Positions 18,314-61,908 of a stretch of DNA of 64,000 nucleotides are shown in pieces; position 1 is the first letter of the stretch; each line of letters opens with the position of its first letter. The stretch comes from Octopus vulgaris (lineage: Eukaryota): positions 90,520,001 through 90,584,000 of the forward strand of contig OX597824.1 of the NCBI GenBank assembly GCA_951406725.2, given 5' to 3'. The notes beneath the pieces are model-generated. The model ran no database searches, was not told the DNA's origin, and saw nothing but the letters and a program-made list of their open reading frames with translations. The translations under genes were made by a program, and so were the position numbers.

Positions 18314-18436
18314 TTATATATCACCTGAGGAGATAAAACTGGGTCCCATTATACAGGTAAAGCGTTGCTTAATTTAAATGTAAGTCCTGTATACAAGTGG
18401 ACACATGTTGTATCGAAACATGTGTAGTGTTTATAA
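18314..18436 (+). ncRNA. Type-I hammerhead ribozyme with extended stem II (Penelope-like pLTR remnant)
   Basis: cac-CUGAGGA (18325-31)-gata...tatc-GAAAC (18415-19)-augu-GUA-gtg. Canonical core; stems I and II pair. Confidence 0.7.
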
Positions 18437-21273
18437 AATGACTGTTTAAAATTACTCCTTGTTGACTCTATTTATTCATATATATATATATATATATATA
18501 TATATAGGTAGATAGATATATAGATAGACAGATAGATAGATAGATAGATAGATAGATAGACAGATACACAGATAGATACATAGTTAGATAAAAAGAAATA
18601 CCCTGGAAAATTCATATATTCATACATACACACAAACACACACATATATATACATATAGACATATATATATATTCATATTTATGTGTACATATATACATA
18701 GATATATACAAATATATATACATATATATACATATATATATATATATGTATATCACATATATGTCTATAATATATATATATATATATGTATTTATATATA
18801 CCTACACGTCATACATATATATAAATATATATATATATATATATAGGTTATAATTGTATATTTCTGTAAGAGACTTGTAATTTCCATTTCTCTCATATCT
18901 ATATGAGTGTGTGTGTATATATATATATTATATATATATATCCACGTATGTATATAACTATATATATTAATATATATATAATATGCGGTGTGTGGGTGTG
19001 TGTATATATATATATGTAGGTATATATGTATATATATATATATATATATATATATATATATATATATATATATATATATATATATATATATATATATATA
19101 TATAAACACACATACACACACATTCGTACAGTGGAAAGTACATATACCAACATGTGCACACTTATATATCCATGCATATTAATATATTCCGAACGAAACG
19201 CACTTCACAAGAAAAAAAAAAACAAAAAAAAACAGGATAACAAAATAAAACAATATTCTATCATAATCACACAGAAAGAATATAAATGTCGTCTCTGTCT
19301 CCGAGTATGGCAGAGTATCTGGGGTATACGGGTACATGTGCACAGCATGTCAATTTGCGGGGTTAAAAGGGTATGTTTGCATGTGTGTGTCTATATGTGT
19401 ATATTGTACGTTCAGTGTTTATCTGCTGCTGGGTGACTTTTGAGAAGCGGTATATATGGAAATGACATGAACATCACATATTCCCCACACTAATGTCAGG
19501 TATATGTATGTGTGTGTATATACGTGTGTCTATCTATCTATCTATCTATCTCTCTCTATCTATCTATCTATCTATCTATCTATCTATCTATTTATCTATC
19601 TATCTATCTATCTATCTATCTATCTATCTATCTATCTATCTATCTTTCTATCTATCTATCTTTTTATCTATCTGTCTGTCTCTCTTTCTCTATATATATA
19701 TATCTGCCTGTCTATCTATCTATGCATCTATGTATCTATCAACTTATCTCTCTCTCTGTCTATCTGTGTGTGTGTGTATCTGTCTGTCTGTCTATTTCTC
19801 TCTCTCTCACTCTCTCTCACTCTCTCTCTCTCTCACTCTCTCTCTACACACACACACAAATATATATATAGAGAGAGAGAGAGAAAGAGAGAGAGAAAAA
19901 GGTAAATACGATGATAGACGGATATATATATTCATACATGTAAATATATATCCATATATATATGTATATGTGTGTATATATATATGTATATATATATATA
20001 TATATACATATGTATTTATGTGTGTATCAATATATATGGAGAGAGAGAGAGATAGATTGATAGAGAGATAGATTAGTCCATATGAATAGTTTTCTTCGAC
20101 CAGTGGTACATAATACAGCTATGTGTGTATATCAATATTCGTATAAAATGAATGTGTTATGCGTATGTATATTGAACACGTATACACACGCACACACACG
20201 CACACACGTATATATATATATCTACATGTGTATGTATGTATCTCTCCAAATCTGTCCGCGTGCGCGTGTAATTACGTACATACATACGTGCATATATATG
20301 TATATATATATATATATATATATATATATATATATACGTACCAAAGTCTGTGCAAGCATTTATGAATCTATAGATATACGCGTGTGTGTGCGCATGTGAT
20401 ATATTCTTACATACACACATACATATATACATAAATATATATAATCACACACACACACTTATACACATACACATGACTGATATATTCTTATGGAGGTATC
20501 CACTATCGGGTTGGTAGCAAAATTTGTCTCGTAGAATATGTGGTGCCTTCCAGCTATCTGCATTTTTTGTAATAAGAAAATACAAAATAATAACAAAAAA
20601 AAAAACAAAAAAAGAAATACGCAGTGTGTTTACGTCCCCGTAACTTAGCTGTCCGACTAAAGTGACCGACAGACTTAAGAAAAAGTTAGCACTGAGGTCG
20701 TTTCGCTTCTTTAAAATTCTTCATGGCGGTGCCCAACATGGTCGTAGTTCAATGACTGAAACAAGTAAAAGATAAAAAAGATTTAGTATAGTTTATATAA
20801 TACGTTGAAGCCACATAAACGCAGCGGTGCTGTAGCAGGACAATATTATAGTAAGATTATGTGTTTGGTGTTGTTTTACATGTTAAATTATTTGTTTTTT
20901 GATGTGAACGGGAATCCATGAGATAACAATTGTCTTTGTAGGAGCGGAGTCAAGTTCATAACAGAACACAGAGCTGTCAAAGGTGTTCTCCTCTCATACG
21001 CTACTTACAATACCGTTTGAATGAAGTCGAGCACTATCTCAAGAATCAGAGCTTTTAAAGAAATATAATTTTATTTGAAAATATGCATTGCCTGTCGCAG
21101 TATAAACTTTCAATCATCTTACGATTTCCAAAATTGACTGTGGATAAGTCAATTATACACAAGCATAATTATGTGCATATATGATATATGATATATGATA
21201 TGTATATATATATATATATATATATATATATATATATATATAGATATAGATATAGATATAGATATATATATAT

Positions 21274-21450
21274 AGTTAATCCAAACATGAAAGCACAAAA
21301 AAACACAACAACGCGAGGACGTGGAACAAGTATAGTGTTAGTGGACGCTCAGGAAGGAAGGGGAGAATGTGGATTTAACGTTTCGAGCGGAGCTCTTCGT
21401 CAGAAACATAGGAAAAGGAGAGATCCAAGGAAGGAAAGACGGAGGAAAAA
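21274..21450 (-). mobile_element. Penelope-like pLTR remnant family G in (TA)n (relatives at 30898-31110, 32043-32220, 43700-43885 and 49308-49375)
   Basis: Shares aacgcgaggacgtggaac...gacgctcaggaa with the 30898 copy and contains a minimal hammerhead. Confidence 0.7.
21374..21406 (-). ncRNA. Minimal hammerhead ribozyme
   Basis: ttt-CUGACGA-a-gagc-ucc-gcuc-GAAAC-GUU-aaa. Canonical core with palindromic AACGUU. Confidence 0.75.
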
Positions 21451-21494
21451 AAATATATATATATATATATATATATATATATATATATTATAAT

Positions 21495-59984: not shown

Positions 59985-60775
59985 AGAGTTTGAGAAAATC
60001 TGTGCGGCACAAGAGTTGTGAAATAAGAATTCCAACATCAAGCGTCCATCGCTTTTTGAAGTCCTGCCATTGGAAAAGTTATATTCCAAGAATTAGTCCC
60101 TGCTCTCAGTTAGGATGGTCCGGACCAAGGAGTGGAGTTTTGCGAGTGGTAGTTGGCAGAAGATATAGAAGATGCAAGCTTTCCAAGAAAGGTTGTTTGG
60201 TGTGCTGAGGCTACATTTAGGTTAAATGGCTCGATTCAGTTCCACAACTGCACCTACTGGGGACCTGAGAATCCACATATTACCGAGGAACATCATGTTA
60301 ATTTACCAAGAGTTAAAGTATGATGTGGCTTATCGTTAACTGAACAATTCGTTTTTGATGGTACTGTGTTGGGAATACTTTTAATTGAAGTTGCTGTGAC
60401 AATCTATTGTGCCAAGTATTCAAGAGGACTTTGAAAGTATGTGGTTTGTTCCCAGCAAAACGCATTACTCCACACATCTTAATAATAATGATATCAGGTC
60501 CCGCTCCTATGACATTTTGCCAAACTGGTGGATTGAACGATGTTCTGAAGAATACCCTCTGCATTCACCGGAACCCAAACCACTCTACATATTTTAAAGG
60601 GATACTTAAAAGATAAAGTTTACGTTACAAAACCGGCAAAAGTCAACGAATTCAAGACAGTCATTGAGCGAGAAAGCGCAAAAATACCAAACGAAATGTT
60701 CTTTGATATTTGCAATTCCATTGCTTTGCTTTATCAGCAGTACCCGAAACACAATGATGACCAGTTTTAAAATAA
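59985..60775 (+). pseudogene. Decayed IS630-Tc1-mariner transposase (possibly rosa/DD41D-like)
   Basis: VEFCEW...[24 protein letters not shown]...MWF...WIER...LKDKVY, with stops and frameshifts. Confidence 0.8.
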
Positions 60776-61443
60776 GAGTTCATAAAACTATTAAATTCTG
60801 CCCATAGATTCTGTTAAGTTTTGAAAACGAAATGCATTGAGGATCTGACAACCTACGTTTCCTTTGTCAGTCATAATGCTTATGTCGAATGTAACATTTA
60901 AGTCCAACCAACGATTTGCTAAGAAGCCCACAGAGGTTGAAAATATGAAGATGACGAGTCAGTGTATGTGGTATATTAGCAGACGCTTTTCTTATTTACC
61001 CTGCACCACTAAGCTTATTAATGCTGATTAAAACAAAGTCTCATGCCATTTTAACACGATGGCCTCCATTCTATTCGCTCCAAGGCTATTCGTTCAAATG
61101 TGTTGTAAGATATATTGACTACTGAGAGGTTACTCTTCAGCTTGTCCTTATATCTGAGCCATAGTTGACCAACGTTTCTGTGCCCACTATCACACTGGCT
61201 GTACATGTATGTATGCTTTGGACATTCCTTCGTCACTCTTTATTGGCAAAATGACCAGCCTAACGCAATTGCGACTGCATAAGGAATCTCTCAGTTCCAA
61301 CAATCTTACACTTGCTAAACAGATCGACATTAGACTCTATCTTTTAGTGTACAACTGCAGATCATCCTGTGGCAGACTCTGCGAAAGACGTCTAGTTGGT
61401 TACTATACAACATACACATATATATATATGTATATATATATAT

Positions 61444-61908
61444 CACCCCCACCACCCTGCCCTGTCCCTAGCCATATTCAGATGGCTTTAGTCCCTTATG
61501 TTATCGAGCAGTTACTGTCTATATCTCTTTTAGAGAATTATTATTGCTTTCGAACAGATTTTCGAAATCAGCAAATGTATTTTGCTTGAAAATCTATATA
61601 TGAATATCCTGCAGAGTGAGAATTCGTCGGGGAAGCGGAAGCCTACCACACGCCGACGATAGGCAATACACCTTGAAACCATGGTCCGTGTGTGGTTTCC
61701 GCTTCATCGGGGAATTACCTCCCTTTGCAGGATAAGGACACCGTGACGGTGTCGAGCCTTTCTGGTGACGTCGATGTTCGCCTGGGGCTAAATGCAACAG
61801 TAACACCCCCACCACCCTGCCCTGTCCCTAGCCATATTCAGATGGCTTTAGTCCCTTATGTTATCGAGCAGTTACTGTCTATATCTCTTTTAGAGAATTA
61901 TTATTGCT
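61444..61908 (+). mobile_element. Penelope-like partial tandem pLTR (direct repeat of about 105 bp around a hammerhead)
   Basis: 61444-61548 appears identical to 61804-61908; flanked by (TA)n. Confidence 0.75.
61632..61705 (+). ncRNA. Hammerhead with U4C core and a long stem I
   Basis: cacacg-CCGACGA (61653-59)-u-agg-caauaca-ccu-u-GAAAC-caug-GUC (61684-86)-cgugug; stem I extends through gaagcggaagcc/gguuuccgcuuc. Confidence 0.7.

Follow-up and report, generated by a model that had tools for sequence, protein, structure and literature searches.

Hammerhead ribozyme motifs in a (TA)n-rich window of the Octopus vulgaris genome: their link to Penelope-like elements and a fixed 5' boundary in one family

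Introduction

Why does a microsatellite-rich stretch of an octopus genome carry one hammerhead ribozyme (HHR) motif after another, and what do these motifs belong to? The stretch in question, hereafter the window, comprises 64,000 nucleotides of Octopus vulgaris (GCA_951406725.2, contig OX597824.1, positions 90,520,001 to 90,584,000; G000:C11:90520001-90584000 in our numbering) from a 2.8-Gb assembly of 227 contigs, and its positions are counted from its first letter. It was non-coding in our own scan, 19% of it consists of simple repeats, and its (TA)n share (9.4%) is threefold that of a 400-kb genome sample (2.9%). The repeat landscape, and an Octopus protein among the relatives of one ORF, agree with an octopus origin. 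A sequence-only reading had noticed about a dozen hammerhead-like motifs in it and had attributed them to many parallel, non-autonomous, retrozyme-like families. The comparisons described here make it very probable that the motifs are the insertion-derived 3' ends of at least four Penelope-like element (PLE) families that encode open reading frames (ORFs), together with one or two tandem derivatives, likely non-autonomous, and five repeat families without a linked ORF. Most of the window copies are decayed, and likely inactive.

Minimal HHRs in the pseudo-long terminal repeats (pLTRs) of PLEs are described as numbering thousands per genome, in many families and mostly as solo truncated copies (Cervera and de la Pena, 2014; PMC4209133). 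Animal retrozymes (PMC7229834) and their PLE origin (bioRxiv 10.64898/2026.07.22.740005) have already been published, and the element Hydra-1_Obim of Octopus bimaculoides is reported with an HHR and a preference for (TA)n (PMC8557442). Given these publications, the finding as first stated is already known in kind. One of the families, here called B, shows in addition a fixed boundary at the first base of its ribozyme.

Results

Hammerhead motifs and their families

All the motifs were found, 14 at 13 sites, no more than about 40 nt from the positions at which they had been reported, and every one proved to be a copy from one of 11 dispersed multi-copy families (A to K) with a type-I HHR fold. 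Chance matches in AT-rich repeat DNA are one explanation, and relaxed scans do give many matches in shuffled sequence: an untuned relaxed scan counted 22 in the window with respect to 12.2 ± 3.6 in shuffles. Families J and K are weakly supported. Helix I of family K is weak. When a strict type-I descriptor was used, 3 matches were counted in the window as compared to a mean of 0.14 (maximum 1) in 50 block-shuffles. Since this descriptor had been tuned after the window motifs were seen, the fairer figure is that from 40 arbitrary 10-kb stretches of the genome (400 kb), where 11 matches, mostly of families other than those of the window, were obtained as compared to 1 to 3 in 10 shuffles. An untuned scan of the window allowing one core mismatch gave 3 matches vs. 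0.4 in shuffles. A descriptor limited to core and helix II returned 19 candidates, 6 of which also had a palindromic helix III and a helix I of at least 4 bp, two features that it does not require; the corresponding figure in shuffles was 0/20. The strict test and the test on the omitted features exceed all shuffles, and other family copies restore core bases lost in the window copies. A chance origin is barely conceivable for the motifs as a whole, and for families A, B, C, E, F, G, H and I it is refuted. Of the 801 Rfam matches to the window 150 were listed, chiefly microsatellites matched to microRNA models, and no hammerhead was among those listed.

The strict and omitted-feature tests indicate that the motifs are real, though they form part of a genome-wide background and not a special cluster. 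Motif density lies above that of shuffled sequence, but the figure of one motif per 5 kb holds only when decayed copies are counted: the 400-kb sample implies about one intact motif in every 36 kb of the genome, and the intact density of the window (3 per 64 kb) is not clearly higher than that of the sample (11 per 400 kb). The proposed (TA)n niche is borne out, in that 12 of the 14 motifs lie within 250 nt of a (TA)5, as compared to 54% of random non-repeat positions. Different HHR families also adjoin one another elsewhere, nested in each other's (TA)n flanks (L011, L154, L160, L180, L243, L244 and L373).

Exact core matches of family B (29215-29325) number 3,902 genome-wide. Family A (21403 and 31020) gave 309 first-look candidates, and a 23-nt word from its 5' part is matched exactly 1,762 times; for family I (27419) there were 623 exact matches, and for families E (47209), F (61653), G (18325) and K (55088) 1,810, 1,640, 424 and 373 candidates, respectively. 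Family D (29868) has 12 other copies, whereas families C (32191 and 43825), H (46817) and J (35248) are represented by copies met in the fetched loci, with no genome-wide search for these; five copies of family C were counted in 400 kb, from which its number in the whole genome may run to tens of thousands. Core and helix III were intact elsewhere in 25/29 loci of family A, 13/24 of E, 13/14 of I, 6/24 of G and 4/14 of K, and the core boxes in 9/12 other copies of D, counts that come from top-scoring loci and are hence biased.

The CUGANGA/GAAA/UH core with three helices and an open helix I is present at family level in A, B, D, E, G and J. Families H and I have the core variant U3-A8 in place of the C3-G8 of the others, a known hammerhead covariation (PMC4209133; PMC3088659), and the helices of the families pair despite their different sequences. 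The sequence-unrelated contexts that had been claimed amount to 11 families, but the motifs at 21374 and 30988 belong to one family, those at 32160 and 43794 to another, and families E and F are about 60% identical. Likewise, the tiny palindromic helix III is generally supported, except at 29241-29310, where helix III is a hairpin. The motifs at 18314 and 54965 (families G and K) have 85-95 nt between the core boxes and a helix II of 8 bp (G) or about 7 bp (K). At least ten further hammerhead families, several of them with U3-A8, were seen outside the window (L189, L197, L199, L200, L209, L215, L217 and other flanks).

Links to Penelope-like elements

In families B, G, H and I the HHR is preceded, on its own strand, by an ORF with reverse transcriptase (RT) and GIY-YIG endonuclease (EN) motifs, in agreement with the PLE link that had been supposed. 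Family I is represented in the window by an inverted insertion (27276-27508, minus strand) with a decayed U3-A8 HHR at 27390-27424. In its other loci, examined to 1.5 kb, the ORF carries RT, a CX4CxxC linker and GIY-YIG motifs, and its stop codon stands about 146 nt above the HHR core in 11/14 loci. These ORFs are open and about 99% identical over 450 aa (L235-L246, L352-L381), which suggests a young, recently active PLE family. A similar ORF was found 648 nt upstream of the family H ribozyme in locus L160; the window copy (46784-46821, minus strand) is a U3-A8 HHR with one helix I mismatch, and inverted arrangements were seen among other family H copies. In both families the linker is of the CX4CxxC form and the GIY-YIG core contains cysteines, which agrees with the CX2-5CxxC linker and endonuclease CCHH of the Neptune and Nematis clades. 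On these motifs they are assigned to Neptune/Nematis-type PLEs, the two clades not being separated, and they resemble published elements of this type (PMC8557442; PMC11167929) in linker, GIY-YIG cysteines and the presence of two fixed 3' ends.

Eight long copies of family B were extended to 10 kb; one contained RT and EN (L227, G000:C5:30237901-30247900) and another an EN end. In L227, RT and EN are followed by a microsatellite-rich 3' untranslated region (UTR) of about 3.2 kb, the HHR and the tail. The copy is 5'-truncated and has lost the stretch bearing the DKT and RWK motifs; its protein, which has 42 longer relatives, shows the Hydra motifs (a CxCX5C linker, CxxC and CxH near the end, no CCHH), and its target is (TA)n. 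By these motifs family B is assigned to the Hydra clade, with which it shares the C-terminal GIY-YIG without CCHH, the CxCX5C linker, an HHR near the 3' end, inverted 5'-truncated copies and a tail (PMC8557442). By eye the protein resembles that of Hydra-1_Obim, but the HHR differs and has no match in the supplement of PMC8557442, and the 3' UTR alone exceeds the total length of less than 3 kb given there for Hydra elements. In family G, two loci (L137 and L143) carry Hydra-like RT/EN coding sequence 0.7-1.2 kb above the HHR and in the same orientation, a stretch also present in L149 and L150; the window copy of this family (18320-18429, plus strand) is a near-intact type-I HHR with a helix II region of about 85 nt.

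The 3' UTR of family B consists largely of TA/TG/TATG microsatellite common to the copies (L224-L231), so that the PLE itself spreads microsatellite DNA and with it potential (TA)n targets. Long copies of A, G and H also have simple-repeat UTRs. The ORF piece of L227 is immediately preceded (about 4480-4860 in sense orientation) by a further palindromic insertion, arranged head to head between (TA)n flanks and bearing a GAAA-palindrome-UA motif.

The mode of insertion points in the same direction as the ORFs: 5' truncation, head-to-head inversion and an optional 3' tail occur in B, E, F and I, and copies of B, F and I end at one of two fixed 3' positions, one including the tail and the other lacking it. 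The inverted and tandem layouts that had been noted in the window are borne out, with inversions in B, E, F, H and I and tandem arrays in F.

Several results weigh against this origin. Pfam matches of the family I ORF were both below the cut-off (RVT_1, E=0.013; GIY-YIG, E=0.024), the family B ORF pieces gave no relevant Pfam match, and the family H link comes from a single locus. For A, C, D, J and K no PLE ORF was present in the fetched loci, beyond which none was sought, and folding z-scores of single motifs were unremarkable except in family F. In the window itself no PLE ORF of at least 90 aa was recognised.

The earlier view, that all families are independent non-autonomous retrozymes producing self-cleaved circular RNAs, draws on these same families without a linked ORF and on family F, with its tandem 360-bp units, intact HHR and scattered 5' ends, to which family E is related. 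A non-LTR retrozyme has tandem units and no coding partner in cis; families B, G, H and I depart from this organisation, their long copies running into PLE ORFs, and long copies of family A continue upstream into microsatellite-like sequence. Moreover, a start at the cleavage site, 44 nt downstream of the first base of helix I, was found in 0/30 family B copies selected by their tail, nor was it seen at any B junction on the contig sampled below. We consider this view improbable for the set as a whole. It fits family F and probably E, while B, G, H and I are truncated PLE 3' ends.

The 5' boundary of family B

We numbered family B from the first base of helix I (+1) and analyzed each of the first 100 exact matches to its core on contig C1; the junction counts thus come from one contig and small samples. 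These matches comprise 109 arms, 55 continuing into the long 3' UTR and 54 short. Among 32 short insertions, the longer arm ends at +1 in 22, at +2 or +3 in 6 and further upstream in 4. Of the 30 copies selected only by their tail, 19 were short palindromes and 9 were long, with 2 belonging to neither class. No such wall was observed in the control families: 5' ends of family I lie anywhere between +19 and positions beyond -1,400, 7/30 of them forming a mild cluster at 12-34 nt above the core, and those of family F are spread round the unit. The window copy (29215-29325) is itself a short head-to-head palindrome with two decayed HHRs, at 29228-29276 (minus strand) and 29276-29318 (plus strand); its plus arm starts at A29275, the first base of helix I, preceded by G29274, as in the genome set. 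Extrapolation from 63 Mb gives about 1,400 short B insertions genome-wide.

A TATAAATG box is present at -29 in both B subfamilies (B1 and B2), a position consistent with the usual distance between a TATA box and the start of transcription. The base preceding +1 is G in 13/15 junctions that are not explained by self-pairing of AGCT, whereas the element itself has T at this position. Copying of a cap leaves an extra G at the end of the cDNA. Against a G content of 30% the nominal p is about 1e-5, which is overstated because 8 of the junctions are of one type, where the G may derive from the partner arm. In four copies without inversion (L182, L276, L322 and L345) the 5' end likewise lies at +1 or +2. 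From this set of observations, we give slightly better than even chances to the proposal that the short palindromes are complete copies of a capped, uncleaved RNA of 135-140 nt started at helix I.

Some points speak against it. The C1 search pattern demanded bases from +3 onward and so excluded shorter copies; TATA-like words are common in the AT-rich B UTR (8 in 300 nt); the 8 junctions of one type make up most of the 13 with G; and the G is clearly untemplated in only three loci (L276, L037 and L049), the last two palindrome-selected.

The wall might also be a microhomology or fold-back trap at the self-complementary AGCT, produced by self-priming of cDNA or by collapse of long inverted copies, with no RNA start involved. 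Self-priming has been proposed for palindromic PLE junctions (PMC3846280), and perfect AAGCTT palindromes account for 7 of the 22 insertions that extend to +1. However, the AGCT in the 3' strand of helix I and the longer GTTAAC palindrome just upstream (B2) attract 0/32 junctions. The four non-inverted copies and the dominance of G at -1 also disagree with it, and we regard it as rather unlikely.

A 3' splice site (UAG before CUUCC), with copies made from spliced or part-spliced RNA, is suggested by the pyrimidine-rich stretch that ends in TAG at the wall and by the intron of Drosophila virilis Penelope, which ends at helix I (PMC4209133). The arms, however, still contain the AG, which would be lost on splicing, and the junctions have no upstream exon in common; a splice site has little chance of being the cause. 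Descent of the short palindromes from one or a few palindromic masters, as in miniature inverted-repeat elements (MITE-like), would let the wall be inherited and would account for copies that are numerous and near-identical. Against this stand at least three junction types that recur in both B1 and B2, both subfamilies existing also as long copies, and a tail that may be on either arm; such masters are an improbable source. The trap, the splice site and the palindromic masters each fit the family B data less well than a capped start at helix I does.

Families F and E

Family F occupies 61441-61908 (plus strand), that is 1.3 units of a non-coding 360-bp tandem repeat with one type-I HHR per unit; loci elsewhere hold up to 8 units in 3.2 kb, and copies are about 99.5% identical. 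The window HHR (61646-61695) has a U4C core, a U-U at the base of helix II and a ACCAUGGU palindrome, with cleavage predicted after 61686. U4C was present in 71/75 copies counted; it is known from a viroid to lower activity (PMC3088659). Two family F copies fold as a double hammerhead according to minimum-energy prediction. Of 46 3' ends, 35 fall at two fixed sites 44 nt apart, whereas 46 5' ends are scattered over the whole unit, so that spread likely takes place from multimeric or circular RNA; inversions are present. For neither F nor E was a PLE ORF found in the fetched loci. These features fit a non-LTR retrozyme mobilised by a PLE. Family E (46991-47462, plus strand), in the window an insertion with an inverted 3' piece and a decayed HHR at 47203-47247, is probably an older retrozyme related to F.

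Family F resembles the animal non-LTR retrozymes (PMC7229834; bioRxiv 10.64898/2026.07.22.740005), whose units measure 150-400 bp, in its non-coding tandem organisation, from monomers to long arrays, and shares the U-U at the helix II base with axolotl HHR_Amex2. It differs from them in the U4C core and in the PLE-type tail and inversions, which are directly visible.

Other copies in the window

The fold of the family is intact in 4 of the 14 window copies (18325, 21403, 43825 and 61653); 46817 has its one mismatch, and the remaining nine are decayed. Family A is present as a short copy (21262-21452, minus strand) with an intact minimal HHR at 21373-21407, which has an extra A after A9 and an ACGU palindrome, and as a second copy (30885-31113, minus strand) whose HHR at 30988-31024 is dead, the GAAA box being mutated. 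About 22/30 family A loci (L382-L411) have their 5' end within 2 nt of an initiator-like TCATT word, about 88 nt above the core; this cluster is also seen at window 30988-31113, and one locus (L382) shows an untemplated G. The search word began at TCATT and there is CA/TA microhomology with the target, hence the cluster is not counted as support.

The old family D is represented by a decayed copy (29864-29904, plus strand; 70-87% identity among its 12 other copies). Family C has one decayed copy in which A9 is changed (32160-32195, minus strand) and one that is intact for this family (43794-43829, minus strand). Core position 6 is U in all listed family C copies, although any of the four bases may follow at position 7, and the family may be a natural A6U variant under selection. 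Family J (35210-35253, minus strand; A9 changed, helix I unpaired, few other copies seen) and the HHR-like motif of family K (54968-55093, minus strand; long helix II region) are decayed.

It had been supposed that any transcript crossing the motifs could self-cleave or circularise. This is not supported, with nine of the 14 decayed and minimal forms needing a second copy. Cleavage of dimers was reportedly described by Lunse et al. in 2017. For minimal HHRs of PLEs the published cleavage in vitro is poor (PMC4209133), and one of nine dimers cleaved in a recent study (bioRxiv 10.64898/2026.07.22.740005).

Apart from the hammerheads, the window contains three tandem copies of a 184-bp unit (37918-38471), which seems to resemble an octopus short interspersed element (SINE). 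Open frames at 39698-40282 (minus strand) and 14504-14827 (plus strand) look by eye like ends of the RT of CR1-type long interspersed elements (LINEs).

Discussion

The octopus motifs have much in common with the HHRs of PMC4209133, namely the extra base after A9, the palindromic helix III, the U3-A8 variant and pairs on opposite strands. They differ from them in the 85-95-nt helix II region of G and K, the fixed U6 of C and the monomer-type helix III of B. In the one searchable supplement file of PMC4209133 no cephalopod is mentioned, and a 2026 octopus repeat annotation (PMC13282606) lists PLEs with no mention of ribozymes in its main text. Neither fixed-boundary PLE palindromes nor a survey of cephalopod HHRs was found in the literature searched; the supplements of PMC7229834 and the bioRxiv study and a further file of PMC4209133 may list these families. 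The part that appears to be without a published match in this literature is the set of fixed-boundary palindromes of family B, a short derivative unlike the Hydra PLEs as published.

How might such palindromes arise? The endonuclease of the element would nick (TA)n DNA on both strands, as is established for another PLE in vitro, and RT would prime at two internal RNA sites, one giving the fixed 3' end that includes the tail and the other the fixed end that lacks it. The two cDNAs would then run 5'-ward, stop and be joined head to head; this arrangement is what the genome shows. A Poseidon PLE extends both strands in vitro, its RT starting at two internal RNA sites with uncleaved RNA as template (PMC11167929). 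In family B, a TATA promoter in the 3' end of any long copy would give a predicted capped RNA of 135-140 nt starting with the ribozyme, which the element protein would copy from both target strands, the cDNAs ending at the cap before being joined. The whole scheme, in which Pol II begins a capped transcript of a Hydra-clade PLE precisely on the base that opens the hammerhead, uncleaved sense RNA is copied from both nicked strands with joining of cDNA 3' ends, and about a thousand promoter-less palindromes with a cap-derived G are left behind, is put forward tentatively, at a little under an even chance. Cleavage would then be a self-decapping off-switch and not a step that makes the template. 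On cap-derived G at retrotransposon 5' ends nothing relevant was present in the literature searched.

The predicted family B promoter recalls D. virilis Penelope (PMC2377424), where the promoter is in the pLTR upstream of the HHR. That promoter, however, is internal and TATA-less, with a start about 120 nt above helix I, whereas family B points to a TATA-driven start at helix I. Head-to-head junction palindromes are also found in Adineta vaga Penelope; self-priming with an antisense template was preferred in that study, which did not decide on the polarity (PMC3846280). The family B data favour sense RNA as the template, against antisense self-priming. The origin of head-to-head inversions, the template strand and the role of the hammerhead are stated to be open in PMC3846280, PMC8557442 and PMC11167929.

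For the octopus genome, a rough extrapolation yields about 65,000 (tens of thousands) intact-looking hammerheads in 2.8 Gb. This repertoire extends a known pattern, and its natural core variants are worth assaying; the boundary of family B matters more. All three PLE questions become testable through the fixed 5' wall at helix I and the TATA box found at -29. If the proposed scheme is true, the palindromes would preserve in the genome which RNA strand served as template when the PLE transposed, whether it was capped and in what state its ribozyme was.

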